From: Candidatus Omnitrophota bacterium
Lineage (GTDB): Bacteria > Omnitrophota > Gorgyraeia > B26-G9
Assembly: GCA_018817585.1 (NCBI GenBank)
Contig: JAHITE010000081.1
Coordinates: forward strand, 4,549 to 68,548
Reading direction: 5' to 3'
DNA length: 64,000 nucleotides
A program made the translations under genes and the position numbers. Within the stretch, counting starts at the first letter, position 1, and each line of letters starts with the position of its first letter. The notes below the pieces were generated by a model. That model saw nothing but the letters and a program-made list of their open reading frames with translations, was not told the origin of the DNA and ran no database searches. This document shows positions 8,399 through 62,479 of this stretch, piece by piece.

Positions 8399-9885
8399 GA
8401 CTTTAATATTGGAATAAGTAGTTTATGAAAAATTGTTCTAAAGAAAAACATTGGTTTTCTAAATAAGAATATATTATAATTCTGGAAAAATTTAAATGGA
8501 TTTCTTAAAAATAATTTAAGGTTATAAGTCCAATACCAGTTTCTCCGGGTTTTTTCCAAAAACCTACTGTCAAATTCCTCGGTTTCAAATTTTGACTGAA
8601 AATAATCGAGGCTTGTATCATCCAAATCATTTAAATAGCCTTTTTGCCGGCAATATTCAAAAATCCGAGTCCCGGGCAAAGGATTGGCAATAAACAAAGA
8701 CACCCTGTCCAAAGCCAGCTTGTTCATAAATTCTAAAGTCTTAAATATCTGGGCCTTTGTTTCCTGCGGAAAACCAATAATAAAAAAACCATAAGTATTT
8801 ATTTTATGCGCTTTGATTATTTTGCTTATTTCCTCAATTTGCTTTAAATCCGTTGGCTTGTTTAAAACATCGCGCAATATATTCGGATCACCGCTTTCCA
8901 CTGCCAGAGTTATTTCATAACAGCCGCTTTGCTTCATTAAGCTGATCATTTCCGGATCAAGGGTCTGAGCGGCAATGCCGTTAGGAGTGTTCCAGGTAAA
9001 ATTAAATTTACGGTCAATCATTGCTTGAAACAATTTTTTCGCCCGCGGTTTATCCAAAGTCAGATTATCATCAAAGAATTTTATTTCTTTAATCCCCATA
9101 GCCTTTAACTGGCACATTTCCTGAATTACATTTTCCACAGAACGCGGCCGATACTTTCTACCCCAAAAATGACAGGAGCTGCAAAAAGCGCATTCAAACG
9201 GACAGCCGCGGGAGGTGATCAGATTCATTGCCGGAGTCTGTCGGCTGACCAGGCCCATGGGCAAATTGATTTTATGATATTTTTCTAAGGGTAATAAATC
9301 TCTGGCGGGAAATGGAATCAGATCAATATTTTCAATCCACTGGGTCTTGGGATTTATCTGAACTATATTATTATTTCTAAACGCCAAACCATCAATCTTC
9401 GCGTAATCAGCTTTATTGCTAATCGCGGTTAAAAGATTTTTTAATGTCTCCTCCCCTTCGCCCAGAATAATAAAATCAAGCTGCTGATTCTCCAGGCATT
9501 TTTCAGCTAAAAAACTGGGGTGTGAACCGCCGACGATAGTTACAATGTTTTCGGAAATGCTTTTAATATCACGGCAGATCCGATTAACAATGCTAATCTG
9601 ACTGGAATAAAGACAAGTTATGGACACAGCATCCGGCTCGAAATCAATAATCTGCTGTTTTATCTGGCTAAAAGACAATCCATAGCGCAATAAACCATTG
9701 GCTAATCTGGTTTCCTGCGCATATCCCTCAACTGCCGCATCAAGGAGTTTAACTTGAAAATCATCGCGCAGATAAGCAGCCAGATAAGTAATTCCCAATG
9801 GCGGCATTATCTGTTTAACAGACTCCGGCGAAAAAACAACCGGAGGAAAAATTAGCATTAGTTTTTTTATGGGTCTATCAATCAT
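8395..9885 (-). CDS. B12-binding-domain radical SAM protein (class B rSAM)
   Basis: N-terminal cobalamin-binding Rossmann-like region. Radical SAM cluster motif SRGCPFECAFCSS (CxxxCxxC). 496 aa. Paralog of the next gene. Confidence 0.8.
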   Translation of the reverse strand: MIDRPIKKLMLIFPPVVFSPESVKQIMPPLGITYLAAYLRDDFQVKLLDAAVEGYAQETRLANGLLRYGLSFSQIKQQIIDFEPDAVSITCLYSSQISIVNRICRDIKSISENIVTIVGGSHPSFLAEKCLENQQLDFIILGEGEETLKNLLTAISNKADYAKIDGLAFRNNNIVQINPKTQWIENIDLIPFPARDLLPLEKYHKINLPMGLVSRQTPAMNLITSRGCPFECAFCSSCHFWGRKYRPRSVENVIQEMCQLKAMGIKEIKFFDDNLTLDKPRAKKLFQAMIDRKFNFTWNTPNGIAAQTLDPEMISLMKQSGCYEITLAVESGDPNILRDVLNKPTDLKQIEEISKIIKAHKINTYGFFIIGFPQETKAQIFKTLEFMNKLALDRVSLFIANPLPGTRIFEYCRQKGYLNDLDDTSLDYFQSKFETEEFDSRFLEKTRRNWYWTYNLKLFLRNPFKFFQNYNIFLFRKPMFFFRTIFHKLLIPILKS

Positions 9886-11419
9886 TGTCTTTATCTATTT
9901 TTTGTTTTTTATTGAAATTAAAAAAACCGACAATACCTTTTGCGATAAGCCGGAAACTCATTATCGGATGAATGAAAAATAATTTAAGATATTTTTTAAA
10001 AAACCGAAAAGGATGCCTTAGAAAAACTCTTGTTAAATAAGCATTAAAGTTCTTCTGAATAAAACTTTCAAGTTCATGGCTGGCAAATTCCTCTGTCTGA
10101 AAATAAGAACAATCATAATCCACATCATCAGCCAAAAAATCTTTTTCAATATAACCTTTTCCCTTGCACAGCTCAAACAAATCTGAACCAGGCGTTGGAT
10201 TAGCAATAAAGAAAAAAGCTCCGTCCAAATCCATTTCCTTAGCAAACTCAAAGCTTTTCAACATCTGCTGTTTTGTTTCTCCGGGAAAACCTGAAATAAA
10301 AAAAGCCATTGTCTGAATCTTAAGCTGTTTCATTTTTTTTACCAGCTGTTTTCCCTTATTCAAATCCAATGGTTTGCGAATAATATTTTTCAAAACATCC
10401 TGATCGCCGCTTTCAAAAGCAATGGTCAGTTCATAACAGCCGCTTTGACGCATCAGCTCAAGCATCGGCTCATCCAAAGTCCAAATCGCAATCCCATTAG
10501 GCGTATTCCAATGGATATTAAGTTTGCGGTCAATCAAGCCCTGAAATATGGCTTTAGCTCTTTGTTTATCAAATGTCAGATTGTCATCCGTAAACTGAAT
10601 TTCTTTTATCCCGTATTTTTTAACCAGCATTTCAATTTCATTTAAAACATTCTCCGCGGAACGCGCGCGATATTGATTACCCCAATAATTGCGTGAAGCG
10701 CAGAAAACACATTGGGCGGGACAGCCCCGACTGGTGACCACCGGAGCATTCTTGCGGCTTTTATAAGTAAAGCTGAACGGCACTGCTTTTTTTTCATAAA
10801 ATTTCATGGGCAACAGATCATAAGCCGGAAACGGAAGGCTGTCTAAATCAGCAATAAAATTCTGTTTAGGATTAATAATGATTTTATTATCTTTACGAAA
10901 AGCCAGGCCGTCAATCTGGGTATAATCTTTTCCCTGGTCAAGGGTTTTTAGTAGTTTAGAAAAACTCTCTTCTCCCTCTCCCAGAATTATAAAATCAATT
11001 AAAGCCGCGGATTCCAAGGTATGCTTTGCTAAAAAAGTCGGATGAGAACCGCCAACAACAGTGATTATCTGAGGATTCAATTTCTTAATCTTTTCTGCTA
11101 GTTTAATAACTTCATTAACCTGGCGGGAAAATAAACAAGTTATGCCAACAACCTGAGGCTTAAACTGACTTATCATGGCCACTATTTCTTCCTGTTTATA
11201 GCCGTAATAATCCCACTTACTATTTTTCGGTTTAAATGATTGGAACTTTGCCCGTCCGTCAATTATTTTAACATCAAAATCTTTTCTGATCACAGAAGCC
11301 AGATAAGCCAAACCTAAAGGCACAGAACAATGCTGAAAATTTGCAGCCAGAACTTTACCGGGCGGAGAAACAAGCATTACTTTTTTGATTTTCCTATTTA
11401 ACATTATGAATAACCACAA
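9878..11419 (-). CDS. B12-binding-domain radical SAM protein (class B rSAM), tandem paralog
   Basis: TSRGCPAQCVFCAS motif. The C-terminal FLRHPFRFFKKY parallels FLRNPFKFFQNY in 8395-9885. 513 aa. Confidence 0.8.
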   Translation of the reverse strand: MWLFIMLNRKIKKVMLVSPPGKVLAANFQHCSVPLGLAYLASVIRKDFDVKIIDGRAKFQSFKPKNSKWDYYGYKQEEIVAMISQFKPQVVGITCLFSRQVNEVIKLAEKIKKLNPQIITVVGGSHPTFLAKHTLESAALIDFIILGEGEESFSKLLKTLDQGKDYTQIDGLAFRKDNKIIINPKQNFIADLDSLPFPAYDLLPMKFYEKKAVPFSFTYKSRKNAPVVTSRGCPAQCVFCASRNYWGNQYRARSAENVLNEIEMLVKKYGIKEIQFTDDNLTFDKQRAKAIFQGLIDRKLNIHWNTPNGIAIWTLDEPMLELMRQSGCYELTIAFESGDQDVLKNIIRKPLDLNKGKQLVKKMKQLKIQTMAFFISGFPGETKQQMLKSFEFAKEMDLDGAFFFIANPTPGSDLFELCKGKGYIEKDFLADDVDYDCSYFQTEEFASHELESFIQKNFNAYLTRVFLRHPFRFFKKYLKLFFIHPIMSFRLIAKGIVGFFNFNKKQKIDKDND

Positions 11420-11558
11420 TTTTCAATATTTTAGATTAATGTTCAAGATTATAATTACCAATATGATATATGTTTACAATTCTAACACAATCTTTTTGAT
11501 TACACAAACTGGTTTATTTGACTTTATTGATTAGTTATGCTAAAGTACGATTACAAAA

Positions 11559-12974
11559 ATGAATATCGCGCTAATCCGTCCCCCAAAAATTACCGGAGCA
11601 TTTGAAAAAATCCTGATTCAGGAACCGATAAATCTTGTTTATTTAGCTGCTTTTTTAAATGCCAACGGATTTAATACTGTGATTTGGGATTTTGAAGTTG
11701 AGCAATTTTCCCAGCAAATTATAGCGCGAAGAATTGCTGACAATAATATTTCAATTGCCGGCATTACTTCCATGACTCCAACAATCAATAACGCGCATAA
11801 TATCGCTAATTTAATTAAACTCATAAATCCCGCGATTGTAACTATTGCCGGCGGAGCACATGTTTCCGCAATCCCCGAGCAGAGTTTAAACGAATTTCCG
11901 GGATTTGATTATCTGGTTTTGCGCGAAGGTGAAATCGCTTTGCTCAAACTCTGCCAAAGCATCAGAGATAAAAAGTCAGCTGATAAAATCAGCGGCCTGG
12001 CTTTTTTAAAGAACAAACAAGCGGTGATAAATCATCCAGCGGAAGAAATTGAGGATTTAGACAGCCTGCCCTTTCCAGACCGGAAGCTTTTAAACCGCGA
12101 TTTATACAAAAACATGTACGCCGCCGGAATTAACATCAGCAATAAACGCGCGACTGTTGTCTTTACTTCCCGCGGCTGTTCTCAAGACTGCACATTCTGT
12201 GCTGTTAAAAAAACCAGCGGCCCTAAAGTCAGATTCCGCAGCGCGGAAAATGTTATTGCTGAATTAAAGCAATGCAAAGACATGGGCTATAATCATATTA
12301 CTTTTGAAGATACCAATTTAACCTTAAATCAGCAAAGATTTATTCAAATCTGCAATGGCTTAAAAATATTGGGATTGACTTGGGATTGTCAGACAAAAGT
12401 CAACATGGTCAACAAACAGCTAATATCTCTGATGAAAGACTGCGGCTGTTTAAAAATTGCTTACGGTGTTGAATCCGGCAGTCCTAAGATCTTAAAACTG
12501 ATGAAGAAAAACATTACGCTTGAGCAGATAAAACAAGCATTTGAACTTACGCATCAAGCCGGAATTGTTACCTGTGCTTTCTTTATCTTAGGTTCGCATC
12601 CTGAAGAAACAGCCCAAGACATTAAACTGACTGAGCAAATAATAAAAAAAATCAAACCTGATGTATTTCAGCTAGGAATTATCTGTCCCTACCCCGGCAC
12701 AGAAATTTATGATATTATGCAGGAATACGGTTTAATCAAAGACATTGACTGGAATAAATTTAATTTCATGCATTCTGTTCCGCCCTGGGGCACAAAACAT
12801 TTAACAGCCCAACAATTAGTCAAATTTCAAAAACAAATCTATACCCGTTATTTATTCAGCTGGCATTTTATCGGTTTTTTCTGCAGAAAGATGCTCAATC
12901 CCAAACAACTGCCGCAACTATGCAAGCTCTCATTTTACATGCTAAAGTATTTGCTTTTTGAGAAAAGGAATTAA
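11559..12974 (+). CDS. B12-binding-domain radical SAM protein (class B rSAM)
   Basis: TSRGCSQDCTFCAV motif. Divergently transcribed from 9878-11419. Upstream -35 TTGACT, 17-nt spacer, -10 TAAAGT. 471 aa. Confidence 0.8.
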   Translation: MNIALIRPPKITGAFEKILIQEPINLVYLAAFLNANGFNTVIWDFEVEQFSQQIIARRIADNNISIAGITSMTPTINNAHNIANLIKLINPAIVTIAGGAHVSAIPEQSLNEFPGFDYLVLREGEIALLKLCQSIRDKKSADKISGLAFLKNKQAVINHPAEEIEDLDSLPFPDRKLLNRDLYKNMYAAGINISNKRATVVFTSRGCSQDCTFCAVKKTSGPKVRFRSAENVIAELKQCKDMGYNHITFEDTNLTLNQQRFIQICNGLKILGLTWDCQTKVNMVNKQLISLMKDCGCLKIAYGVESGSPKILKLMKKNITLEQIKQAFELTHQAGIVTCAFFILGSHPEETAQDIKLTEQIIKKIKPDVFQLGIICPYPGTEIYDIMQEYGLIKDIDWNKFNFMHSVPPWGTKHLTAQQLVKFQKQIYTRYLFSWHFIGFFCRKMLNPKQLPQLCKLSFYMLKYLLFEKRN

Positions 12975-20285: not shown

Positions 20286-21731
20286 CTAAATCCTGCGTAC
20301 TTCCATTATATTTGATAAGAAAAGCTGATTATCTTCTGTAAGCATTACCAGCACAGTATCCTTGGGTTTTACCAATCCGTTTTTTTTTGTCAGTTTAATA
20401 CAATCATCAAGCGTTTTTCCCAGTTTGGCAAACTTCGGCATTAATAAAGGGTACACCCCCCAATACATAATCATTTGCTTTAGCACATTCTGATCAGTCG
20501 TCACGCCGACAATCATCGCCTGAGGCCGGCAGCGGCTAAGCCAGGATATTGCTTTAGCACTGTGTGTGGGCGCAATAATTGCCTGGGCATTTAGCTTATT
20601 GGAAATATTCACTGCTGCCCGGCTAAAAGCGCTGACTAAATTTTCAGTACCTGATTCCGCTAAACTTAATTCTTTTTGTTTCGCGCAGAGTTTCTTCTCA
20701 GCTCGATTAGCAATTTTCAGCATCATCTTAAGGGTTTGCACCGGATATTTACCCACCGCGGTTTCTTCTGAGAGCATCAACGCGTCAGTACCGTCAAGAA
20801 TCGCGTTAGCCACATCAGTAACTTCCGCCCGGGTTGGCTGAGGACTGACAACCATTGATTCAAGCATCTGGGTCGCGGTAATAACCGGCTTACCCACAGC
20901 ATTACATTTTCTAATAATTTCTTTTTGAAGAAAAGGCACATCCTCCAGATCAGCTTCAATCCCCAAATCTCCCCGCGCGACCATAATCGCGTCACTGACA
21001 TTAATAATATTATCAATGTCCTGAAAAGCGACTTTGCGTTCTATTTTTGCCACAACCGAAATATGTTTTTTTCTTTTATTTAAATAATTTTTTGCTTTTA
21101 TAATATCTTTTGCCTGCTGAACAAAAGACACAGCAATAAAATCAACTCCGGCTTCAATACCGTATTTCAAACATTTTAAATCATAAGCAGTCACTGAGCT
21201 CATTTTAAAAAATTGATTTGGACAACTGACTCCTTTGCGCGGATATATCCGGCCGCCGAGCAAAACTGAACAAACCGCCTTTTCCTGATTCGTTGAAATT
21301 ACCTGGAGTTTTACTAAGCCGTCATTCAGATAAACAATATTGTCTTTTTTTAGTTCCTGAATAAAAGCGCTGTGATTAACGCAAACTTCCGAATTTGTCC
21401 CAATAACTTTTCTGCTGGTAAGCGTGAATATCTGCCCCTGATTCAAGTAAATTGATTCTTCAGTTAATTCCCCCAGCCGGATTTTCGGACCAGGGAGATC
21501 CTGGAGTATCGCTACCGGAGATTTAAGTTCCTGGGCAGCTGCTTTTACCAGTTTAATATATTTCACATGATCCGCTGGTTTGCCATGTGAAAAATTAAAT
21601 CTGGCAATGTCCATTCCCGCCAGAATTAATTCTTTGATTACTTTGCGGCTGTTGCAGGCCGGACCGATTGTACAGATTACTTTTGTGCTGTTCCAATACT
21701 CTCTCATACTTTTCCCCTTGAATAGCGCCAA
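20286..21731 (-). CDS. pyk: Pyruvate kinase
   Basis: TKVICTIGPA motif; ARGDLGIE; MVARGDLG; 481 aa. The true start is probably the internal Met (MREYWN). Confidence 0.9.
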   Translation of the reverse strand: MALFKGKSMREYWNSTKVICTIGPACNSRKVIKELILAGMDIARFNFSHGKPADHVKYIKLVKAAAQELKSPVAILQDLPGPKIRLGELTEESIYLNQGQIFTLTSRKVIGTNSEVCVNHSAFIQELKKDNIVYLNDGLVKLQVISTNQEKAVCSVLLGGRIYPRKGVSCPNQFFKMSSVTAYDLKCLKYGIEAGVDFIAVSFVQQAKDIIKAKNYLNKRKKHISVVAKIERKVAFQDIDNIINVSDAIMVARGDLGIEADLEDVPFLQKEIIRKCNAVGKPVITATQMLESMVVSPQPTRAEVTDVANAILDGTDALMLSEETAVGKYPVQTLKMMLKIANRAEKKLCAKQKELSLAESGTENLVSAFSRAAVNISNKLNAQAIIAPTHSAKAISWLSRCRPQAMIVGVTTDQNVLKQMIMYWGVYPLLMPKFAKLGKTLDDCIKLTKKNGLVKPKDTVLVMLTEDNQLFLSNIMEVRRI

Positions 21732-22078
21732 TGTTCATAAGCATAATCTAAAATTCTTTGTCTGTCATCCGGCTCAATCTCATTGATTCTTAAACCCGCG
21801 TCATAATTATAAGTCCAATCCTCAGCACTTTTTCTAATCCAAACAACCTGCCCTTGAGCGAAAATCGGGATTATAGAACCGGGAATCCAAATTTCCAGTT
21901 TTAATAACTGTCCAACCGGAATATTCCGGTTCAGAGAAGCTTTCAAGCCTTCTCGATTAAAATTCATCAACATTACTAAACCGTTCTTAGCGTCTTCAGT
22001 TTGAAAAGTACCTTCTAAAAATGCCCCCAGGCGCAGGTATCTTCTCTTTTCATTATAATCAGTCATCAAAGCCTCCAT
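21704..22078 (-). CDS. PilZ-domain protein (c-di-GMP receptor-like)
   Basis: RRYLRL (RxxxR) plus an N.NREG variant of the D.S..G motif; 124 aa. Confidence 0.55.
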   Translation of the reverse strand: MEALMTDYNEKRRYLRLGAFLEGTFQTEDAKNGLVMLMNFNREGLKASLNRNIPVGQLLKLEIWIPGSIIPIFAQGQVVWIRKSAEDWTYNYDAGLRINEIEPDDRQRILDYAYEHWRYSRGKV

Positions 22079-22385
22079 AAGAATATATGATCTTAATAAT
22101 TATTTAAACAGCATATACTCCGGTTCAAACTAATCACTTATTTTATCATATCCTCAGGATAAATCAAACAGAAAGCATGAAAAAGTATACTTAGCTGACA
22201 GCTGATGGCTCATGGTTAAAAACAGAGAACAGAAAAAGCAACAAGCAGGAAAAGCTAACCGTAGGGGCGCTGCTTGCCTGCGCCCGATTATCAATTATTT
22301 AACCGATTTTAATAATTTATATTATACGGGCCGGGACAAGCACGGCCCCTACATTTCAACTTTACAAACTGCCCCTTCTCATTTT

Positions 22386-24065
22386 TCAGATCTCCAGGCG
22401 CTCAAGGGCTTTACAACCAGCGAATAAAAACCCAAAAATTGTGCTTAAGCCTAAAATCAGGATAAACAAAGTAACCGCTATAATCAGTTTGTCAAAAACA
22501 GTCTGACTGATCTGCTGCGTAACCAGCAAATGAAAAGGCATAGCTAAAGCAGTGACATTAACCGCGATATAAATCAAATTCAATACCAAAGCCAAGGTTC
22601 CGCCGAATCCCGATACAATCGCCGCCGGATTATCTTCTTTAAAATTAGGAAATAAAGCGCCCAGCCCGATACAGATACTGATCAAAGAAAACGACATCAG
22701 CACAACCATAATTCCCGACAATACACTTACCAAGGACGAAACCCTGAGCATATAATTAGAAATTGAAATTAAAGGCAGACTTATGCCCAAAGCAATCAAA
22801 CTGTTCAGCCAAAACTTTTCCAGCAGCAGCGTTTTTTTGTCCACTGGAGCCAATCCGAGAATCCAAAACCGCTTGCCTTCCAAACTAAGCTGGGGAAAAA
22901 CAAACCGCACGGACAAAGAAGCTAAAGTTAAATTAGTTGATGCCAGATTAAGAAAACTAATAATATTTTTCCAAAACGGCAGAACATTCTGATAGCCGAG
23001 ATTGCGGATATTGATAAAATATATAGCCAGCAAACCAAAGAATATGCAAAATTGCGACCACTGCAGCGGATCGCGGCTAAATACCTTGATATCCTTTACA
23101 ATCATTGCCCTGATCGGTAAATCGATAAATTTAAGCCGGCTGAACACTTTTTCCAGTTTACTATTTGCTCCAATATAGGTTTTACGTATTCCCTGAAACC
23201 TGGTGTTTGCCCAACTATCATAGTAAATAAACTTTGCCGCAGCCAAGGCAATGTAGCTAAAAAATAATCCATTGCTGATTAATAACAATAACCAGAATAA
23301 ACTCTGGGAATAATCAGCGGATATTATTTTTAATAAACCTTCGCTGATCCAAAAATTAGGTAAAAATACGCACTGGGTAAATCCAAAATGAGGGATAAAA
23401 TTAGTCAATAAAAACATCACTTCATTTTCTTTGTTTGCCGCGGCTTTACCAGTTAAGATAAGCCCAAAACAACCCGCCACAAACAAAACCACCAGCATCC
23501 AGATCAAATATTTTACCGCCTGCCTGGGAATAAATTTAATTGCCAGCATGGTAAGCAAACAACCCAGAGCTCCGGCAATAACCGCGAAAGGGATAAAAAA
23601 TATGATTAAACTTAAATAAAAAATTAAGCCCAAATCCCTGACCGCGGCATAAGCGCTTAGAATCGGTAAAAGAAAACATAAAAATGTCCAGGAGCTGAGA
23701 ATCATTGAATCAATTAATTTGATAAAATAAATTTCCGTATATTCCAGAGGCAAAGAAAAAAAATAAGCTGTTTCCCGCGCTTTATAAGCACTGGAATAGC
23801 TGATAATGCAATTGGAGAAAATCAGCATTAAAAACAAACCGAGAAACAGTAAGAACAAAAGCCGGTCAATAATCACCAATCCCAGACTGCCCAAAGATTC
23901 AAGGAAAAGAAAAGCTTTGTAGGGCACAAAGAAAATCAGCCAAAACAAACCAATCACCATAAGTCCCACAACAAAGATTTTTAGTTTTGAATGCTGTCCA
24001 ATACTCTGGAGCTTATTGCTTAAAACCCGCAGTCTGGCTGTATAAACATTTTTAAGGATTTCCAT
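22386..24065 (-). CDS. ABC-2 type transporter permease (polytopic membrane protein)
   Basis: About 12 predicted TM helices; overlaps the downstream ATPase gene; 559 aa. Confidence 0.6.
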   Translation of the reverse strand: MEILKNVYTARLRVLSNKLQSIGQHSKLKIFVVGLMVIGLFWLIFFVPYKAFLFLESLGSLGLVIIDRLLFLLFLGLFLMLIFSNCIISYSSAYKARETAYFFSLPLEYTEIYFIKLIDSMILSSWTFLCFLLPILSAYAAVRDLGLIFYLSLIIFFIPFAVIAGALGCLLTMLAIKFIPRQAVKYLIWMLVVLFVAGCFGLILTGKAAANKENEVMFLLTNFIPHFGFTQCVFLPNFWISEGLLKIISADYSQSLFWLLLLISNGLFFSYIALAAAKFIYYDSWANTRFQGIRKTYIGANSKLEKVFSRLKFIDLPIRAMIVKDIKVFSRDPLQWSQFCIFFGLLAIYFINIRNLGYQNVLPFWKNIISFLNLASTNLTLASLSVRFVFPQLSLEGKRFWILGLAPVDKKTLLLEKFWLNSLIALGISLPLISISNYMLRVSSLVSVLSGIMVVLMSFSLISICIGLGALFPNFKEDNPAAIVSGFGGTLALVLNLIYIAVNVTALAMPFHLLVTQQISQTVFDKLIIAVTLFILILGLSTIFGFLFAGCKALERLEI

Positions 24066-24795
24066 TAATCGTCTCTTCTTGAGTTATTCTTAAAAAAACA
24101 TCTTCCAGTTTGCCCTTTACCCCTGATGAATGGCTGAGCTGCTCAAGACTGCCCAGAGCCAACAGCTTTCCTTTATCAATAATCCCGATCCGGTCAGCCA
24201 GTTCTTCGGCAACACTTAAAGTATGGGTTGATAAAAAAATGGTCACACCTTGCCGCGTTTTTTGTTTTAAAATATCCTTAACCAATCTGCTGGAATGCGG
24301 ATCAAGCCCGACCATGGGCTCATCAATGACCATAACCCGCGGCTCATGCAGTAAAGCGCTGGCAAATACCAGTTTCTGCCGCATACCATGAGAATAATAT
24401 TCAATCAGATTATTTTGAGCGTCTGACAGGCCAAAGGCTGATAATAACTCATCCCTTAACTTCAGCTGTTTTTTTTGGTTTGACTGCGGATACAATTTGA
24501 TTACAAAATCAAGAAATTCACTGCCAGTCAGCTTATCATAAAGAAACGGAAAATCCGGAATATAACTGATCAAAGCTTTGGCTTTCACATAATCTGTCTG
24601 GATATTATGTCCGCAAATATAGGCAGTACCGGTTGAGGGTTTTAACAGTCCGATCAATAGTTTAATTGTAGTTGTTTTACCAGCGGCATTTGGTCCCAGA
24701 AAAGCAAAAAACTCTCCTTGAGGAATTTCCAAATTTAAATTATCCACAGCCAGCAGATTATCAAATTGTTTACTTAAATTCTCGATCTTAATCAT
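24052..24795 (-). CDS. ABC transporter ATP-binding protein
   Basis: Walker A GPNAAGKTTT; signature YSHGMRQKL; Walker B VMVIDEP; 247 aa. Confidence 0.9.
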   Translation of the reverse strand: MIKIENLSKQFDNLLAVDNLNLEIPQGEFFAFLGPNAAGKTTTIKLLIGLLKPSTGTAYICGHNIQTDYVKAKALISYIPDFPFLYDKLTGSEFLDFVIKLYPQSNQKKQLKLRDELLSAFGLSDAQNNLIEYYSHGMRQKLVFASALLHEPRVMVIDEPMVGLDPHSSRLVKDILKQKTRQGVTIFLSTHTLSVAEELADRIGIIDKGKLLALGSLEQLSHSSGVKGKLEDVFLRITQEETINGNP

Positions 24796-26297
24796 TGAAA
24801 ATTAATCACCTCCAGCTCAATTTTTCCCAAAACCCGAATAATATCCAATTGCCGTCTAATATCACCCTCCAGCAATTTTATATGCCCGGCATCAGCAATG
24901 TTCTGGCCAAAAGTCGGATCCATATCCAGCCAAACACCGATATAAACACTAACCCAGGCATGATAATAAAACCGGCCGTGGCTATAGACCAGGCCGACAT
25001 TAATTTTAGTGGGAATCCCGATTGACCGGGCCAAAGCAGCGAATAAAACACTATGTTCATTGCAATCACCTTCCCGGGTTTTTAACACATCAACTGCCGA
25101 AGGAATACTAACCACAGGAACTTTAGCGATATTTTTAAACAGCCAATCATTGATTTTCACAGCAGCCAGATAACTATTTTTTTCTTTGTTGATTATTTTC
25201 GCGGCTAGGGCTTTAATCTCTGGAGCATCCGCCTGAATAAACGCGGAAGCATGTTTTAAATCGTTAAATTCATTGATTGGTAAAGCTAAACACTGCTCTT
25301 GATTAATTTTTTCAGCTCTAATTTGCAGGGTTTTAATATTATCCTGGTCATTGAGAATCTTCTGCCGCTGGCTTTTTAGATCAAAATCATCCGGCAGATT
25401 TTTTAAATTAATATTCAGCACTTTCAAAGGTTTATTAGGCAAAGTAATATTCGCGGCAATGGAAACCATTTGCATAAGCTCAATTTCTGATTTTGCCGTT
25501 TCCGAATATACTCTGGTCGCGGCTTCCGGACTTTCCTTGATCAATACCCAGCCTAATCCGGTTTCCTGTTTCAGGATTTCTCCGTCTTGATTAACCCAGG
25601 CCGTCTGTTCAATACCGCGGTATTTGCTTTTTACCCGATAAGCCTTGACATCCTGATTATCATGAACAATAATTTCCTGATCTAGAACATTAACTTCTAA
25701 AGGTTCCAGAGCTAAACTAAAGGGATTAAACACCATCAGATTATAATTATTGCCGATTTCCAGAGAACCAAAAGAACTAAACGGGCTGATAATACTGGCA
25801 ATTAAAAACCCCTGATCCTTGGGCAAAATAATTTTTTTCTCACTAATATTGCCCTGAGAGACAATCTTCACCTTTAGGGTTTGCTTATCGAGCATTTCGC
25901 CAAAAACATTGATTGTATGCGTTCCTGAGGTAAGGTCAAAATCAAAGTTTACCAATTGATAATCAGCATCGACAATTGCCTGGGCATTAAACCAGACTTT
26001 ATTGCGTTTTCGCATTATAAATAAATTCATAAATGTTCGGTTAATTATTCGATAGCCGCTTTTACCTTTTTTAATCATAAAAGGCTCGATCGCGCTATGA
26101 ACAAAACCTACAGGCAGGCTATTAAAATATATGCCCATCCAGGAGTCAGACAACAGCTTATCTTTGGATAAAAAAGTTTTATATCCCGCGGTTTTGTTTT
26201 TAAACACAACTTGCTGCAATATCAATAAGCTAATCATCACCAGCCAAAAGATAATGATAAAACCCGGCAGTATTTTTTTAAGAATTTTCTTATTCAT
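24792..26297 (-). CDS. Transglutaminase-like (TGase core) domain membrane-anchored protein
   Basis: N-terminal TM helix. REGDCNEHSVLFAALARSIGIPT (catalytic Cys in a papain-like TGase core); downstream His/Asp. 501 aa. Confidence 0.7.
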   Translation of the reverse strand: MNKKILKKILPGFIIIFWLVMISLLILQQVVFKNKTAGYKTFLSKDKLLSDSWMGIYFNSLPVGFVHSAIEPFMIKKGKSGYRIINRTFMNLFIMRKRNKVWFNAQAIVDADYQLVNFDFDLTSGTHTINVFGEMLDKQTLKVKIVSQGNISEKKIILPKDQGFLIASIISPFSSFGSLEIGNNYNLMVFNPFSLALEPLEVNVLDQEIIVHDNQDVKAYRVKSKYRGIEQTAWVNQDGEILKQETGLGWVLIKESPEAATRVYSETAKSEIELMQMVSIAANITLPNKPLKVLNINLKNLPDDFDLKSQRQKILNDQDNIKTLQIRAEKINQEQCLALPINEFNDLKHASAFIQADAPEIKALAAKIINKEKNSYLAAVKINDWLFKNIAKVPVVSIPSAVDVLKTREGDCNEHSVLFAALARSIGIPTKINVGLVYSHGRFYYHAWVSVYIGVWLDMDPTFGQNIADAGHIKLLEGDIRRQLDIIRVLGKIELEVINFQ

Positions 26298-26403
26298 CGA
26301 TGAGCGGCTTTTTTAGCATAAATTCTAAAATAAATTTAAATCTCGATAAAACTCCAATAAGGCTTTATTTGAAAAGATATTTAAAGCTAAATATATTTTA
26401 TGA

Positions 26404-26718
26404 TTAAAAGTCTCCTAAATCAGATTTGTTGACTATTCTGACAAATCGGATGCCAATATCAAATTTATTATCAGCTGTTTGATCTTTTTCCTTATACCAA
26501 ACTACTTCCCCGACCGCATAATAAGGACTGGAAGAACCGGTAATATTCACCTCAATATTTAATTTTGTCCCGATATTTAAAGGCGTATCCGTGGCAATCC
26601 TCAGTCCTCCGGTAGATATATCCTGAGTTTTGGAAAATTCCACAATATCGCTGTTTTCAACTTTCTTTCTGATCGGCATCTCCTGCGCTAATCTGGTAAA
26701 TTTCCTTTTTTCATCCAT
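26404..26718 (-). CDS. PilZ-domain protein
   Basis: RKFTR and DISTGG canonical PilZ motifs; 104 aa. Confidence 0.8.
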   Translation of the reverse strand: MDEKRKFTRLAQEMPIRKKVENSDIVEFSKTQDISTGGLRIATDTPLNIGTKLNIEVNITGSSSPYYAVGEVVWYKEKDQTADNKFDIGIRFVRIVNKSDLGDF

Positions 26719-26749
26719 AACCGCCTCCTCTTGTTAAAAAGTTATTAGA

Positions 26750-29467
26750 TTACAAAGCATTATAGTAAAGTATCCGCGTTTTTGGCAAATAAGTTATTGT
26801 TACATCCTCTACAACCGGCGCTTGTTCAAAATCAGCATCATCAGGATTATCAGGCTTGTCAGGATCAGAACCATGGAGTTTTCCAAAGTCAGAAAATAAA
26901 TAAACCTGATAGCAAATAGACTGACTGGCTGTTGTTCCAATAGGGCCGCCGCTGGGCAGAATTACTGGCGGAACATATGCCGGCAAAGGCGCGCTAAGAA
27001 CCGCGCTGTCGGAAGCTGCCAGATAAACCAGCTCACTTCCCGCATCTGCATCATCTATTGCTGGATCAGCTGTTACCGGCAAAGTTACATGCGCTTGGAT
27101 TGTGCCCCATTCTAGAAACTGGCCCGAGCCCATGCCAGCAGCCGGGCTAAACATTTGAGATGTATACACTCCCTGGCTGGGAACAATTCGAATATAATCC
27201 ACATCCGGCAAATTACCCATTCCAGTAAACTGAAAAAAGCGATCTTCCCAAACCATTATCTGATGTGTTGTAATAAAAGAAGTAGTAGTGGCTGTCTTAA
27301 AATACACCTCTCCTCTAGTATGCCAACGCCCGATTCCTTTTAAATGAAATGTTTTTTCATCCTGATAAACATTTTCCACTATAAGGAAATATTCCACGCT
27401 ATCATCAGTAAAATACGGGATGTCTCCATCGCTACCAGAATACTCATTACATGATACCATCACATTAGATCCTCTAATAACTGAATATGGTTTTCTGCTG
27501 GTTTGCCATACTGCCTTTTCCCAGTCAGGAGAACCATAATCAGGTGATGGCGTAAAATAGATATACCCATTACCATCATAATTAACCCAGTTTTGGTATA
27601 CAGGGATCGAATCAGTAAGCTGATCTCTTTCCTGTACATTATTGCAGAAAATTGATGACATCAGCTCTTTGGGTGCTGATGGGTCAGGAAAATTTCCAAA
27701 ACGAACATGAAAAGTATTTATATATTGTTGATGAATCCATGGTTTAAGACAAGGAAACGCTGGGTCAGTAGACTTCCAACATTTCGCCAAATAAGCACCA
27801 AGAATACCAGTAGTGTCCGCAGCAATATCCGGGCAATTAGTTGCATCAGGCGGCGGAGCCTCGATCCAAACCCATTCTAAAGGAATCGCCGGCCAGGGTA
27901 AATTGGGACGGTCAACAGGATATTTAGCATTATCAGAATTATTTTCATCTTTTCCGTGTACAATAATCGCAAAATCATTCACAATACAGACATCTTGATC
28001 AAGATTTATTTTAGGAAAATGATCATCCGATAAATTTGTACCCGAAATCCAGGTTCTTAGCATTCCATCATTGCCATCATTAATCGTATATGTTTCATGA
28101 ACCGCTTTCCATGGCCCCTTTTGCCCTGAACCATCCGGATCCGGGCTTAAAGGATCATAATCCTCCTGAAAATTATCCCAGAATCCGAGTTTCAATGAAT
28201 CAGGAATAAAATCTTTAGGATTTTGCCCATCATCTTTATCATCTTTATAATTAAATTTCTTAAGCACAGTAAAATCAACCGGACAAGTATCTTTCCAGGA
28301 TATTCTGCAAGTAGCCAATAAATTAGCCTTGGCAATAAATTCTTCTCTAGTAGTTTGATTGATTTTGCGAAACACACTAACAACTTGTTTAATTCTTTTT
28401 TTCGCGCCTTGATATTTGCCAATAGCCTCAATTTCATAATAACCATTGGCATCAAAACCAATTTTTGTGGAATTAGTGGCATAAGTATTCGGATCACTTT
28501 GCAGCAAAACCGCGTCCCGGTTTGCTTCGGTTATAATCCCTACTGAACAAGCGTATTCAAGATAACGTTCAAATTCACCTCGCGCGCCTAAAAAATTAAA
28601 CACTCCAGCAGTCGGATTTTGTCCGTCAAAAGGATTAGTATCTCTTCTTGCTTTAATTGCAGCAGCTAGAGCATCCGCTTGACTATTGCTAAAACTGCCC
28701 ATCATTAATCTAAACACAGCTTCCAGCACTTTCAACGGTGCTGTATTAACATTTACAAATGATTTTCGGGAATGTCCGCTAACCGGAGATGTCGAGGTTT
28801 TATCCAGCTCAATAATCCCATCATCCTCATCACCCCACAAAGTAATAAAATCCTTTATTGAATTATAAGTATCTTTACCAATACCAAAAACTAATTTTAT
28901 TTCTTCTTTAGTAGTAAAAACCTGTCCCGGCAAAGTCTGACGAAAAGCCACCAGGTTTTGGGCTTGATTTGCGGTTAAACCCAGCTGATCTAAAATATCT
29001 TCTAAATCAGTTACCGCGTCTGAATTCGGTAAGGGACAGTTAATATTAATCAATCCGCCGCAGTCAATTACCTTTAAACGATAAGAGCCTTTGGCATAAG
29101 AAATATCAGCACCATAGGAAGGGGTAACAGCTGTAGCCAGCTCAACCGTAGACCCGTCATAAGCCGCATTGCCGGGATAATACCAAGGATCAGAGCTAGA
29201 ATCATAAGGTTCATTCATCGCCCCATAAGAGGAATCATACTTAATATCAGCAACTGCCCGGGCAATTCCTGCTTGGGCAATAAATGAAGCTTTAAGCAGA
29301 TTTATCTGATTTTCCGTGGCCTGAAGTTCAAGGCGGGTAAAAGCAGAAAAACCCACGGTAATTAGCACGAGAATCGCCAAGACTCCTACACTTAAAATAA
29401 GCGCTATTGCGGAATTAGGTTTAGTTTTCATTATTATAATTATATCACATCGATAGAGCCTAAACAA
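26750..29467 (-). CDS. Large (about 900 aa) PilX-N-domain pilus-associated protein (putative minor pilin / tip adhesin)
   Basis: N-terminal hydrophobic helix plus ...FTRLELQATENQINLLKASFIAQAGIARAVADI, which matches PilX_N. The long extracellular C-terminal region is rich in W/Y/G/D. The likely start is the internal Met (MKTKPNS). Confidence 0.55.
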   Translation of the reverse strand: MFRLYRCDIIIIMKTKPNSAIALILSVGVLAILVLITVGFSAFTRLELQATENQINLLKASFIAQAGIARAVADIKYDSSYGAMNEPYDSSSDPWYYPGNAAYDGSTVELATAVTPSYGADISYAKGSYRLKVIDCGGLININCPLPNSDAVTDLEDILDQLGLTANQAQNLVAFRQTLPGQVFTTKEEIKLVFGIGKDTYNSIKDFITLWGDEDDGIIELDKTSTSPVSGHSRKSFVNVNTAPLKVLEAVFRLMMGSFSNSQADALAAAIKARRDTNPFDGQNPTAGVFNFLGARGEFERYLEYACSVGIITEANRDAVLLQSDPNTYATNSTKIGFDANGYYEIEAIGKYQGAKKRIKQVVSVFRKINQTTREEFIAKANLLATCRISWKDTCPVDFTVLKKFNYKDDKDDGQNPKDFIPDSLKLGFWDNFQEDYDPLSPDPDGSGQKGPWKAVHETYTINDGNDGMLRTWISGTNLSDDHFPKINLDQDVCIVNDFAIIVHGKDENNSDNAKYPVDRPNLPWPAIPLEWVWIEAPPPDATNCPDIAADTTGILGAYLAKCWKSTDPAFPCLKPWIHQQYINTFHVRFGNFPDPSAPKELMSSIFCNNVQERDQLTDSIPVYQNWVNYDGNGYIYFTPSPDYGSPDWEKAVWQTSRKPYSVIRGSNVMVSCNEYSGSDGDIPYFTDDSVEYFLIVENVYQDEKTFHLKGIGRWHTRGEVYFKTATTTSFITTHQIMVWEDRFFQFTGMGNLPDVDYIRIVPSQGVYTSQMFSPAAGMGSGQFLEWGTIQAHVTLPVTADPAIDDADAGSELVYLAASDSAVLSAPLPAYVPPVILPSGGPIGTTASQSICYQVYLFSDFGKLHGSDPDKPDNPDDADFEQAPVVEDVTITYLPKTRILYYNAL

Positions 29468-29472
29468 TAAAC

Positions 29473-29508
29473 AAAAAAAAGGGCAGGATAATTTATCCTG
29501 CCCTTTTT
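29473..29508 (-). terminator. Intrinsic terminator (acts on both strands; strongest on the minus strand after gene 29525-30151).
   Basis: GC hairpin gggcaggataatttatcctgccc (29481-29503) flanked by A8 on one side and T5 on the other. Confidence 0.75.
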
Positions 29509-29524
29509 AATCAATTACTTAATT

Positions 29525-30151
29525 TTATTCGTACTGAATATCATCTAAATAAAACACGCATCCTTCAGGATTAGCCATAGAGCTGGTTACCCAGGAAAAA
29601 CCACCGCTAATATATGCCAAATCAAGATCAGTTAAGTCAATTGAATATTGCTGCCATTCAGCAGTCAGTTCAATTGGGCCAACACTAGCCGAATCAGTAT
29701 CTGAATATGTTCCGGTTAATCCGCCGATTTTAAACTCCATTATCTGTTCGCCGCCATTTGCGCCGCGCGCCCAGAAAGTAAGTTTAGTCGCGCCAGTCAG
29801 ATTATAACCACCATCTTTTTCACCCCAGTTGTTTGGCGGCCATTGCCAGTACATTCCAGCCCAATTAGCGCCTTGCTTGCCTTCGCCAGTATAAATAATT
29901 TTTATACAGGTTTTTCCAGAATACGGATTTTCTTTTTCGTTTTCCGAAAATTTAATATCACCATAGTCTCCCATCCATCCTGATCCAACATAATGATTTC
30001 CTTTATTACCTCTGTCATAATAAATACCAAACGGAGAGAATCCGCCTGCTGCTTCTTTCTCTGCCGTTCCCTGAGCAATAACAGGCATTACCGCAGCAAA
30101 AAATACTGCTAAAACTACCAAAATCAGTCCTAACTTTTTACTCATATTCAT
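29525..30151 (-). CDS. Secreted beta-sandwich / carbohydrate-binding-module-like protein
   Basis: Signal peptide. C-terminal ...GCVFYLDDIQYE resembles a CBM/galactose-binding-like fold ending. 208 aa. Confidence 0.35.
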   Translation of the reverse strand: MNMSKKLGLILVVLAVFFAAVMPVIAQGTAEKEAAGGFSPFGIYYDRGNKGNHYVGSGWMGDYGDIKFSENEKENPYSGKTCIKIIYTGEGKQGANWAGMYWQWPPNNWGEKDGGYNLTGATKLTFWARGANGGEQIMEFKIGGLTGTYSDTDSASVGPIELTAEWQQYSIDLTDLDLAYISGGFSWVTSSMANPEGCVFYLDDIQYE

Positions 30152-31793: not shown

Positions 31794-32300
31794 TTATAAT
31801 TTTTGATAATTATAGATTTTAATTCTGCCGGTCGCATTGACAATTGTTAAAGTATAATACTTGCCCTGCGAATTTTTTAAAAAAATGCTGGCATTGTCTT
31901 CGGCACTACCGGTTATATTAAAAATTTCAGCAGGCCGGCTGATCAGAACATGTGAATCAACCGGCAAAGTAGTGCTTTCAATTATTACTCCGGACGCGGT
32001 TTTCATTGAAGTAGTAATTAATTGCCTGGTTAATTGATCTGGTTTGGCAAAAATAAAATACTCAGAATTAGCTGGATCAAAAGCAACTCCATGCTCAATC
32101 TGATGAGTGATCGCCAAACTGCGAGCCTGATTAAGCGCGGCCATAATATTATTTGCTGAGATTTTTAGAGCAGCACCGGCTTTATAATTAAAAAAATACA
32201 CCGTGGTAAGCCCCATGAGCATTGTGATAATGCCTAAGACAACCATCATTTCTATCAAACTAACTGCTTTAATTTTTTTCATAATTAATAAGTATAACAC
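31794..32300 (-). CDS. Prepilin-type N-terminal cleavage/methylation domain protein (type IV pilin / pseudopilin)
   Basis: MKKIKAVSLIEMMVVLGIITMLMGL, with Glu at +5 after the predicted cleavage site. The start is ambiguous (GTG at 32300 or ATG at 32282). Confidence 0.75.
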   Translation of the reverse strand: MLYLLIMKKIKAVSLIEMMVVLGIITMLMGLTTVYFFNYKAGAALKISANNIMAALNQARSLAITHQIEHGVAFDPANSEYFIFAKPDQLTRQLITTSMKTASGVIIESTTLPVDSHVLISRPAEIFNITGSAEDNASIFLKNSQGKYYTLTIVNATGRIKIYNYQKL

Positions 32301-35164: not shown

Positions 35165-36895
35165 TTATTTCCTTCCCTGCAAATTAAACATTTGCTTAAT
35201 TTCTTCTACGGTAGTAGCATCTTTGGCTGCCTTATCAATGCGGATAAAACCTACTGTACGCGGGAAGCGCAAAGCATAACCAGTATCATCCTTACTATCT
35301 TTACCGCATGTATGCACCGGACTTTGAGTGATTTCATCAGCCTGGACTTCCACTACATAGAGCGGATCAACCCACACATCAGGCACAATTAAGGACTCAA
35401 CATTTTTCGGCATAAAATTTATTTTGATTTTATCAAGAGTTTCCTTAAACCGGACTAATTCATCGTCACTTAATCCAGTACCTATTTTAGCAATTGTTTT
35501 AAACCTGCCTACCGTTGGATCATAAACAGCAGCTAATAGGGATCCAATGCCAAATGCCGCTCTCAATCCTTTGCCAAAAAAATAGCCGATAATAACACAA
35601 TCAATCGTATCATTTAAATTGTCGGAATACGACTGTTTTAATTTTATCCAATTAAAATTTCTTCCTCCGGCCTTATATTCACCATCCAGGCGTTTGGCAA
35701 CAATGCCTTCCCGGCCCTGGGCAATAGCATCTTCAAATATTTCAGTTAAACGCTGGGCTGTTTTTACTTCTTCAACCGGAGATAATTCCAAAACCTTGCC
35801 TTTTTTGATCAACTCTGACATAATCTGCCGTCTTTGACTAAAAGCATACTGAGTTAAATCTTTATCCGCGTACAAAAGATCAAACACAAAAATCTTCAAA
35901 GGAAATTTTTCCCGAATGGATTCAATGCCATGCTTGCGCTTTCGCTGTACAGTTGTCTGAAAAGGCAAACACTGTCCGGTAGCTGGATCATAAGCCAAAG
36001 CTTCACCCTCGAAAATCACATTGCTTTCTTTTATCTGATCAAGAGTCCCCTGAATAATCTCCGGAAACATATGAGTTGTATTTTCCAGATTACGCGAAAA
36101 AATCTGAACTTTGTTGCCCATTTTATGCACTTGACAGCGGAACCCGTCATATTTTTCTTCCACAGCGCAAGTTCCGATTTTTTCAATAATCTCTTCTGGT
36201 CCGGATAATCGCGCTGCCAAGGCAACCCGAATCGGACAGCCGACCATTACTTTAAAATCAATAATACTGCTAATCCCCTTGGTAAATAATATTTTCGCCA
36301 CCAAGCCAAGATCAGAACAAAGATTATAAGCCCGCTCCAAATCCGGGCGTAAAAGTTTATCCTGATTATAGGCAAGGGAAAGACTGTCTAAAACAGTAGG
36401 ATCACCTACCCCCAATCTCAGCTTGCCTAAAATTATCCGAATAATATATTTTGCCTCAAGCGGACTGGCATTTTTTAATAAATCAGCAAGAAATTCGATT
36501 TTACGAGCCACTGATCCATCACCGGAAAACTCAGCGAGTTTTTCTAAATTCGCGTAAACCTGACTAATACTTAAAACTTCTAAATGATCTAAACAAACCT
36601 TTTCCGCGACTAATCCATAATCCCCAAGCTGATGAACCATTGCTTCAATATCATTTGATATCCCGCCGGTTGCCTGAACAATAGCGCGATGAATAAGTTT
36701 TTCACTGATTCCAAACTCAATATTGCGAAATGAAGGCAACAGCTGCCCCTGCGTAAGATAGATAATTTCATCTATTTTTTCTTTTTCTACTGGATCAAGA
36801 TTAGTAAAAAGCTCAGCTAAAATATCAGTCATCTCCAGCCGTTTAGCGGTATTTTCCAGCTTTTGAAAATAAGCAGCCAGTTGTTTAAATTTCAT
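35165..36895 (-). CDS. lig: ATP-dependent DNA ligase (LigI/archaeal-type, three-domain)
   Basis: Adenylation motif I EEKYDGFR (KxDG); OB domain; N-terminal DNA-binding domain; 576 aa. Confidence 0.85.
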   Translation of the reverse strand: MKFKQLAAYFQKLENTAKRLEMTDILAELFTNLDPVEKEKIDEIIYLTQGQLLPSFRNIEFGISEKLIHRAIVQATGGISNDIEAMVHQLGDYGLVAEKVCLDHLEVLSISQVYANLEKLAEFSGDGSVARKIEFLADLLKNASPLEAKYIIRIILGKLRLGVGDPTVLDSLSLAYNQDKLLRPDLERAYNLCSDLGLVAKILFTKGISSIIDFKVMVGCPIRVALAARLSGPEEIIEKIGTCAVEEKYDGFRCQVHKMGNKVQIFSRNLENTTHMFPEIIQGTLDQIKESNVIFEGEALAYDPATGQCLPFQTTVQRKRKHGIESIREKFPLKIFVFDLLYADKDLTQYAFSQRRQIMSELIKKGKVLELSPVEEVKTAQRLTEIFEDAIAQGREGIVAKRLDGEYKAGGRNFNWIKLKQSYSDNLNDTIDCVIIGYFFGKGLRAAFGIGSLLAAVYDPTVGRFKTIAKIGTGLSDDELVRFKETLDKIKINFMPKNVESLIVPDVWVDPLYVVEVQADEITQSPVHTCGKDSKDDTGYALRFPRTVGFIRIDKAAKDATTVEEIKQMFNLQGRK

Positions 36896-62476: not shown

Positions 62477-62479
62477 TAT

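Follow-up and report, generated by a model that had tools for sequence, protein, structure and literature searches.

A predicted modular K-type minor pilin beside PilZ genes and a protease-ABC cassette in an Omnitrophota genome: a probable clade-specific juxtaposition of modules

Gene content and transcription units

We analyzed a 64,000-nucleotide stretch of a Candidatus Omnitrophota genome (GenBank assembly GCA_018817585.1, contig JAHITE010000081.1, positions 4,549 to 68,548), hereafter the window, in which six consecutive minus-strand genes encode a large GspK-like protein, a small PilZ-domain protein (PilZ1), a transglutaminase (TGase)-like cysteine protease, an ATP-binding cassette (ABC) ATPase, a permease, and a second PilZ protein (PilZ2) (Table 1). 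An initial annotation of the window had read the six as a single operon for a surface appendage controlled by cyclic di-GMP (c-di-GMP), with a PilX_N-type tip protein that the TGase might cross-link or process and that an exporter would serve. We consider it likely, at a probability of about 0.7, that the region is instead a clade-specific juxtaposition of three modules and not one integrated machine. All six listed open reading frames (ORFs) are present on the minus strand, and Pfam confirms two PilZ domains, Transglut_core, ABC_tran, and ABC_tran_2/PF16949. The four window proteins that were looked up are identical to NCBI entries MBU1087377.1, MBU1087379.1, MBU1087380.1, and MBU1087381.1 on a 133-kb contig, and ENA contig k141_164712 carries the same locus.

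The large gene opens a new transcription unit, as had been proposed. The terminator reported upstream of it is real; it belongs to the preceding gene, which encodes a secreted 208-amino-acid (aa) protein, and its hairpin is kept in 8 of 8 aligned loci of the clade defined below (related loci and contigs carry L or P labels). Past the terminator lies a promoter with an extended -10 element, of which TTGT and T-TG-TATAATT are invariant across the same 8 loci. The ATG at 29431, where gene callers and NCBI also begin the large protein, follows the -10 element after 7 nt in the window and after 7 to 13 nt in 6 of the 8 loci. Such spacing implies a leaderless transcript, and from its sequence the pilin mRNA of the window is probably of this kind. 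The pilin gene has a leader of 45 to 50 nt with a Shine-Dalgarno-like sequence in L004 and L005. Since the TTG at 29467 falls within the -35 element, the 905-aa ORF of the initial annotation has a false start, and the protein that begins at the ATG has 893 aa.

The canonical PilZ gene comes next, as annotated, 31 nt after the pilin gene. No conserved promoter or terminator emerged from a search of the gap that separates PilZ1 from the TGase gene, and these genes are 8 to 13 nt apart in L005, L014, and L015, so read-through from the pilin promoter into the three genes downstream is plausible. Within that trio, the first 4 nt of the ATPase gene lie inside the TGase-like gene, and the permease and ATPase genes overlap by 14 nt. 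The probable end of the transcription unit is a GC-rich nested hairpin followed by a T-rich tract. Among the relatives, this hairpin could be aligned only with the closest, L002; in L009, L013, and L005 it is missing or does not align (the spacer after the permease in L009 being much shorter and largely unalignable). It has no match in Rfam; when the entire window was scanned with Rfam gathering thresholds, nothing was returned, c-di-GMP riboswitches included.

The single six-gene operon does not stand, because PilZ2 is set apart by a 307-nt spacer after the permease gene that holds both the hairpin and a second promoter. The latter's TGATAAAAT, with flanking bases, is kept in 5 loci, down to a pilin identity of ~36%. 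In addition, the stop codon of PilZ2 overlaps the start of the pyruvate kinase gene (pyk) at 21707, an overlap that recurs in nearly all clade loci. With its own promoter and this overlap, PilZ2 belongs to a PilZ2-pyk unit. Translational coupling of PilZ2 to pyk through the overlapping stop and start codons is a side observation of its own, hinting at a c-di-GMP input into glycolysis.

Table 1. Features of the locus and of its surroundings (window coordinates; E values unless stated otherwise)
Feature	Coordinates	Strand	Evidence or remarks
Modular K-type (GspK-like) minor pilin, 893 aa	26750..29431	-	Profiles, AlphaFold2 model, Foldseek
PilZ1, stand-alone, 104 aa	26404..26718	-	Pfam PilZ 2.5e-12
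TGase-like cysteine protease, membrane-anchored, 501 aa	24792..26297	-	Transglut_core (PF01841) 2.8e-20
ABC ATPase (DrrA/ABC-2 type)	24052..24795	-	ABC_tran 3.8e-25; TIGR01188 drrA 5.9e-65
Permease, full-length member of PF16949 (ABC_tran_2/12TM_1)	22386..24065	-	PF16949 3.2e-136
PilZ2, 120 aa	21704..22066	-	Pfam PilZ 1.3e-9
ORFs as first listed	26750-29467, 26404-26718, 24792-26297, 24052-24795, 22386-24065, 21704-22078	-	
Intrinsic terminator of the upstream gene	29476..29508	-	15-bp stem, 6 GC pairs, 3-nt loop, T-run
K-type pilin promoter	29439..29467	-	-35 TTGTTT (29462-29467), 17-nt spacer, extended -10 TGaTATAAT (29439-29447)
Nested hairpin and T-rich tract after the permease gene	22254..22360	-	Minimum free energy -48.2 kcal/mol, z = -3.76
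PilZ2-pyk promoter	22140..22167	-	TTGATT, 16 nt, TG-extended TAAAAT; scan
PilZ2-pyk overlapping genes	20286-22167	-	Overlapping stop/start
Secreted 208-aa protein	29525-30151	-	
GspH-like pseudopilin	31794-32282		
HD-GYP protein	50441-51163		HD and HHExxDGxGYP motifs
pilM/O/Q	59185-63532		
RNase E/G, two overlapping ORFs	57334-59163	-	381 and 127 aa
TPR/PMT_2 glycosyltransferase-like membrane protein	6233-8398		
Three B12-binding radical SAM genes	8395-12974		
ATP-dependent DNA ligase	35165-36895	-	N, adenylation, and C domains

The large protein is a predicted K-type minor pilin with a lectin-like module

Profile searches point to the K-type minor pilins for the large protein. NCBI names the product GspK (MBU1087381.1), and the NCBIfam T2SS_GspK model matches residues 21 to 279 at an E value of 1.2e-9, with 38 bits against an equivalog cut-off of 130 bits. 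The Pfam T2SSK model matches the window protein at 0.0017 and 18 of 20 family members, the best at 9.5e-9, and Pfam also returns HHH_3 on the window protein. PilX_N (PF14341), the domain assigned by the initial annotation, has no match in the window protein at E values of ≤0.1 and matches 2 of the 20 family members weakly (best, 0.0023). The idea of a pilus tip protein was right in substance, although the domain name was wrong. When the whole pilin-family profile was searched against the PDB by sequence, only helix-hairpin-helix (HhH) matches resulted. The protein begins with MKTKPNS, followed past the putative prepilin cleavage site by AIALILSVGVLAILVL (AIALILSV...); this N-terminus resembles a class III signal, with one hydrophobic segment (residues 8 to 26) and no Glu at position +5, and the lack of Glu5 is a trait of K subunits (PMC9934059).

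We built an AlphaFold2 model from an alignment of 20 sequences. It is confident over residues 1 to 355 (predicted local distance difference test [pLDDT] of ~70 to 90) and moderate to poor over the beta-rich remainder. Its N-terminal part consists of a helix at residues 6 to 65, strands at 105 to 123 and 323 to 352, and helices between 137 and 311, that is, a pilin fold with a helical (HhH) insertion. The four best Foldseek matches against the PDB were all XcpX/GspK chains (9a1f_T, 6utu_C, 5vtm_X, and 3ci0_K), with E values of 6e-8 to 2e-6 and target-normalised TM-scores of 0.56 to 0.60. By profile and predicted fold, then, the large protein appears to be a K-type minor pilin, equivalent to GspK or PilX in position and not of the PilX_N type. 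It is probably located at the tip of a pilus.

The remainder of the protein, from residue ~400 to 893, forms a C-terminal module that is predicted to be beta-rich with a concanavalin A (ConA)-like lectin or jelly-roll fold. Foldseek matched it to ConA-like structures that include FRIL, ConA, GH16, and the thrombospondin C-terminal domain at E values of 6e-5 to 1e-3, many of them near 1e-4. Using the C-terminal 493 residues as the query, we recovered only 31 cluster representatives among 1.84 billion, so the module is rare. Five of these 31 are short fragments; in the full-length proteins (600 to 930 aa), the match is C-terminal. Ten members were checked, eight of them drawn from the 31 representatives, and all 10 are GspK-like at the N-terminus. 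The identification of the module as a ConA-like lectin is thus moderately predicted, and a module of this fold may bind glycans.

Distant relatives point to a type IVa pilus

A metagenome scan recovered more-distant relatives of the large pilin (25 to 31% identity, 680 to 1,040 aa), whose surroundings bear on the kind of filament that it would serve. Three or four canonical prepilin genes directly precede the giant gene in L096, L097, L104, L107, and L108. In L104, PilB (MshEN), PilT, a second PilB, and PilC are followed by four pilins and then by the giant K-type gene, after which come a PilM-PilN fusion and a secretin-like gene; both PilB genes bear MshEN. In P0026, the giant gene comes after GspF-GspG. 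The window and its clade have no row of G/H/I/J pilins beside the large gene and only a GspH-like gene 2.3 kb upstream. The pilin row and type IVa pilus (T4aP) machinery around the relatives suggest that the family takes the K position of T4aP minor-pilin sets. In L097, L107, L108, L111, and L112, the pilin row of a T4aP cluster is followed by two or three paralogous giant GspK-like genes in tandem, which suggests interchangeable tip subunits.

The main alternative for the pilin is that it forms the tip of a type II secretion system (T2SS) pseudopilus, where the lectin-like module would recognise or push glycan-active exoproteins or polysaccharide, in connection with the secreted or PEP-CTERM proteins encoded nearby. 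The best sequence and fold matches are indeed to GspK/XcpX, whose characteristic helical insertion is also present; the gene just upstream always encodes a secreted 208-aa protein; the pilin gene of L004, L005, L090, and the P0024 contig is flanked by GH26-like, CBM, and PEP-CTERM/exosortase genes; and the P0026 arrangement fits as well. However, relatives cluster with PilT, PilM-PilN, and MshEN-PilB, which are machinery of the T4aP type, and the window has pilM/O/Q and not gspC/L/M. Furthermore, T4aP are reported to be common in Omnitrophota (PMC10066038), and the terminator parts the secreted-protein gene from the pilin gene. We therefore regard a role in type II secretion as unlikely.

PilZ1 and PilZ2

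PilZ1 carries the motifs RKFTR and DISTGG, and RxxxR and D/NxSxxG are kept in 9 orthologues, which identifies it from sequence as a likely canonical c-di-GMP receptor. It stays beside the pilin gene where the downstream genes have been deleted or displaced (see below), and a link between a tip adhesin and c-di-GMP is plausible. PilZ2 has RRYLR and NFNREG, the latter with Asn in place of the Ser or Thr of its orthologues, so that the motif reads [D/N]x[S/T/N]xxG across the orthologues.

The protease-ABC cassette: a probable autonomous module of the envelope

A single N-terminal transmembrane (TM) segment in the TGase-like protein bears out the earlier description of a membrane-anchored TGase-core protein; a beta-barrel-like domain and a TGase core with Cys412, His446, and Asp460 follow it. 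The three residues are invariant in 18 sequences from several phyla. Among solved structures, the sole relative found by sequence is 3ISR, a "putative cysteine protease" from Cytophaga hutchinsonii (2.6e-13). The AlphaFold2 model (pLDDT, 86) likewise returned 3isr first in Foldseek (2e-12), followed by TglA, PeiP/PeiW, and CPR-C4, while the fold of the N-domain resembles YmcC/DUF1089/LolB. The TGase-like domain is probably periplasmic. As for the permease, its ~11 to 13 hydrophobic segments agree with the 12 TM helices originally ascribed to it, and it has a KDhKxhhR motif at residue 324. PADLOC assigned no defence-system membership, giving generic ATPase matches for the ABC protein and none for the other five.

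We scanned for the cassette in one genome per species, using the TGase-like protein as the query with confirmation by tblastn. TGase-like relatives were found in at least 591 species genomes from more than 10 phyla, among them Omnitrophota, Nitrospirota, Verrucomicrobiota, Kiritimatiellia, Lentisphaerota, Planctomycetia, and Thermodesulfobacteriota, as well as NC10, Binatia, Poribacteria, TA06, and others. Eighty loci were kept, 75 of them from outside the clade, and 62 could be evaluated for the trio. Of these 62, 45 have the TGase-ATPase-PF16949 trio in full, and 57 have one ABC component or more. Profile hidden Markov models for PilZ1, PilZ2, and the K-type pilin found 0 matches at E values of ≤1 in the non-clade loci, even in the 43 whose upstream sequence exceeds 4 kb. 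Surroundings annotated with Pfam in Nitrospirota, in Edwardsbacteria, and in L008, an unclassified metagenome contig, similarly contained no pilin or PilZ and had unrelated neighbours. Since the cassette is common without pilin or PilZ, it appears to be an autonomous envelope module that would not serve the pilin specifically. We found no description of the PF16949 cassette, or of the combination of TGase-like, ABC-2, PilZ, and GspK proteins, in the literature searched.

NCBI names the TGase-like protein "lasso peptide biosynthesis protein," a name that we rejected, as it rests on a sub-threshold match to lasso_biosyn_B2 (E value, 0.0023; 18.3 bits against 33). That match and name, and the ABC exporters that accompany many clusters for ribosomally synthesized and post-translationally modified peptides (RiPPs), might suggest that the protease and ABC genes are a maturation and export pair for a lasso peptide or another RiPP. 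However, neither the window nor the other annotated contexts contain an Asn-synthetase-like cyclase, B1/RRE, or a precursor ORF. Lasso B2 proteins are small cytoplasmic proteases, unlike the TGase-like protein with its N-terminal TM anchor and 300-aa barrel domain, and its structural neighbours are other TGase-like proteases and isopeptidases. The chance of a RiPP function is close to negligible. Flagging this widespread cassette as a putative autonomous envelope module corrects the NCBI misnaming and defines a target for study.

Synteny, a natural deletion, and an integrated system

The genes of the window belong to a block with the order secreted 208-aa protein, K-type pilin, PilZ1, TGase, ATPase, permease, PilZ2, pyk, a Big_5/Tricorn protein, and, on the opposite strand, rpoN. 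This block is confined to one Omnitrophota clade (the window, L002/L003, L004, L005, L009, L012 to L015, and L090), within which pilin identity falls to 36%. Synteny in related genomes, against which the initial annotation was to be checked, holds within this clade and only there. Because the block includes pyk and rpoN, and the Big_5/Tricorn protein gene is equally syntenic, its collinearity is not specific to the system proposed. It is also interrupted in places. A MazEF/PemIK-like toxin-antitoxin pair and a gene for a 137-aa protein sit between PilZ1 and the TGase gene in L013 (8890-9960), an M48 peptidase gene lies between the permease gene and PilZ2 in L004, and an extra ORF lies between the pilin gene and PilZ1 in L012. 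Moreover, one lineage has a natural deletion of ~3.4 kb (L092, 8405-9017; L113 to L116) in which the whole ATPase gene and most of the TGase and permease genes are lost and the remnants are fused. What is left in P0014 is ~70 codons from the start of the TGase gene and ~110 from the end of the permease gene, with the pilin (819 aa) and PilZ1 intact. The structure of the deletion is identical in four independent assemblies from ENA, JGI, and NCBI.

These patterns can be set against the proposal of an integrated switch, in which the co-transcribed TGase-like protease would process, release, or cross-link the tip pilin or its lectin module, the ABC exporter would be needed for display of the pilin, and the PilZ proteins would bring the whole under c-di-GMP control. 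Five contiguous genes with short gaps lie behind one conserved promoter in the clade, the triad of the TGase is intact, and its domain is probably periplasmic. There is also a precedent in the Lap system of Pseudomonas, which includes a TGase-like protease, LapG (PMC3032545). Nevertheless, the cassette occurs without pilin or PilZ in more than 10 phyla, and near giant K-type pilins from outside the clade it never occurs within 9 kb. Within the clade, the deletion spares the pilin and PilZ1, the toxin-antitoxin pair separates the modules in L013, and synteny extends equally over pyk, the Big_5/Tricorn gene, and rpoN. Pilins are inserted by the Sec/SRP route and assembled by pilus machinery, not by ABC exporters. 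Finally, no LapD, DUF920, membrane fusion protein (MFP), TolC, or RTX adhesin components were detected in the six proteins or their neighbours. We consider an integrated switch of this kind very unlikely, and the claim that the TGase and the exporter are dedicated parts of an appendage is not borne out.

It is more probable, in our view, that three modules lie side by side. In the first, the K-type minor pilin would cap the minor-pilin priming complex of a T4aP, with its C-terminal lectin-like module at the pilus tip binding a ligand on a surface, probably a glycan of a host cell or of a substrate, and PilZ1, co-transcribed with the pilin, would couple assembly or use of the pilus to c-di-GMP by acting, most likely, on the extension ATPase or the platform, in the manner of other PilZ proteins. 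The second, directly downstream and probably read through from the pilin promoter, would be the autonomous envelope cassette of a TGase-like Cys-His-Asp protease or isopeptidase with a LolB/YmcC-like barrel, probably periplasmic, together with an ABC-2-type ATPase and a PF16949 permease. The third would be PilZ2, transcribed from its own promoter with pyruvate kinase.

Several observations weigh against this account. The pLDDT over the lectin-like region is ~50 to 80, with several stretches below 50, and no sequence search matched the module to a lectin, that of the PDB returning nothing for it at all. The putative prepilin cleavage site has Ser at -1, a Ser/Asn-like residue, and not the usual Gly. 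No I- or J-type minor pilins adjoin the large gene in the window, where a scan for prepilin motifs returned the GspH-like protein as the single canonical pseudopilin and did not locate I/J partners. The partner or target of PilZ1 is one that we infer entirely. As to the cassette, the pilin-PilZ1-TGase-ABC-permease order is kept within the clade in 11 distinct loci, and this order, together with the lack of an evident promoter or terminator in the gap after PilZ1, makes a clade-specific functional link possible. The loss of the cassette in the deletion lineage, moreover, is read at this locus only. A recruitment of the widespread cassette behind the tip-pilin promoter, restricted to the clade, would have its periplasmic Cys-His-Asp enzyme trim, release, or isopeptide-link the lectin-bearing tip pilin while PilZ1 conveys c-di-GMP control. 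We give this only a slim chance; if true, it would represent a Lap-like "inside-out" switch for attachment and detachment, acting on the adhesin at the tip of the type IV pilus in a putative epibiont.

Comparison with known systems

The large pilin shares with GspK/XcpX (3CI0, 5VTM, 6UTU, and 9A1F), and with the K/PilX position of the HIJK tip complexes of type IV filaments, a helix without Glu5 and, in its model, a pilin fold with a helical, HhH-like domain, and the genes of its relatives are likewise the last of a G/H/I/J-like pilin row. It is ~3 times larger than GspK, however, through the C-terminal module of ~500 aa that GspK lacks. In addition, the clade's pilin gene lies off the pilin row under its own promoter, and the machinery context is T4aP-like, not that of a T2SS. 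Modular type IV pilins have been described in Streptococcus sanguinis, namely PilC, with a ConA-like lectin module at the pilus tip, and PilB, with a vWA module (PMC9934059, PMC8179133). The architecture predicted here parallels theirs, with a bulky C-terminal module, likewise predicted to be ConA-like as in PilC, mounted on a pilin moiety, where there would be room for it only at the filament tip. In contrast to those short pilins, a full K-type subunit carries the module here, without sequence similarity to them and in a diderm of the Planctomycetes-Verrucomicrobia-Chlamydiae (PVC) group, and the lectin assignment comes from a model of moderate confidence. Within the PVC group, Verru_Chthon cassette protein A (TIGR02600) of Verrucomicrobia is also a large protein with a GspK-like N-terminus. 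Several distant members of the pilin family match the first 60 to 75 positions of TIGR02600, and the window protein does not match. Only the N-terminal helix is alike, whereas the C-terminal regions are unrelated and there is no A-B-C-D cassette in the window.

The PilZ proteins of Pseudomonas aeruginosa and Xanthomonas are not known to carry c-di-GMP-binding motifs, whereas PilZ1 has both motifs and is linked to a minor pilin gene, not to pilB. PilZ1 otherwise resembles the PilZ regulators of pili (P. aeruginosa PilZ-PilB; Xanthomonas PilZ-FimX-PilB [PMC8389850]; and Myxococcus xanthus PlpA/PixA/PixB) in being a small, stand-alone PilZ protein linked to pilus genes.

The combination had been called undescribed. 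In the Lap system of Pseudomonas, a precedent in concept, a c-di-GMP receptor and a periplasmic TGase-like protease act together with an ABC exporter and a giant adhesin (PMC3032545), but the locus studied here has no component of the Lap type. The likeness of the LapD receptor, LapG protease, LapBCE ABC/type I secretion system, and LapA adhesin to the window is functional only. PilZ stands in place of the GGDEF-EAL protein LapD (HAMP-GGDEF-EAL), PF01841 in place of DUF920, an importer-like ABC-2/PF16949 pair without MFP or TolC in place of type I secretion, and a pilin in place of an RTX adhesin with a LapG site, and the protease-ABC cassette is autonomous elsewhere.

Omnitrophota are uncultured, mostly ultra-small, and proposed to be host-attached, with T4aP suspected as the attachment organ (PMC10066038). 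A lectin-headed K-type tip pilin with a dedicated promoter and a c-di-GMP receptor would be a concrete candidate for a host- or substrate-recognition element and would extend the "modular pilin" idea from the short pilins of a Gram-positive bacterium to the K cap subunit of a diderm. An integrated c-di-GMP/TGase/exporter appendage is not supported, which lowers the importance of the finding.

Other features of the window

The pseudopilin, HD-GYP, and pil genes that had been drawn into the appendage are genuine, as GspH-like, HD-GYP, and pilM/O/Q genes, but lie 2.3, 21, and 30 kb away amid housekeeping genes. The GspH-like gene, whose product matches Verru_Chthon cassette protein D weakly, is separated from the pilin gene by genes for a tRNA-binding protein, a UDP-GlcNAc 2-epimerase, and the secreted protein. 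The HD-GYP gene follows rsfS, and no GGDEF or EAL gene occurs in the window. The secreted protein of ~200 aa, encoded directly upstream of the pilin gene in every case, has no Pfam match at E values of ≤5 and no similarity to the pilin C-terminus. Near the pilin locus of some relatives (L004, L005, L013, L090, and the P0024 contig) are exosortase/EpsI, PEP-CTERM, GH26-like, and CBM genes.

RNase E/G is split into two overlapping ORFs, and the DUF2344 ORF beside it spans only the first half of the profile; both may reflect frameshifts or assembly errors. Elsewhere in the window, three adjacent genes for B12-binding radical SAM proteins lie beside one for a TPR/PMT_2 glycosyltransferase-like membrane protein. 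A full-length ATP-dependent DNA ligase is encoded between NUDIX hydrolase and radical SAM genes, an arrangement that is kept in L002/L003.

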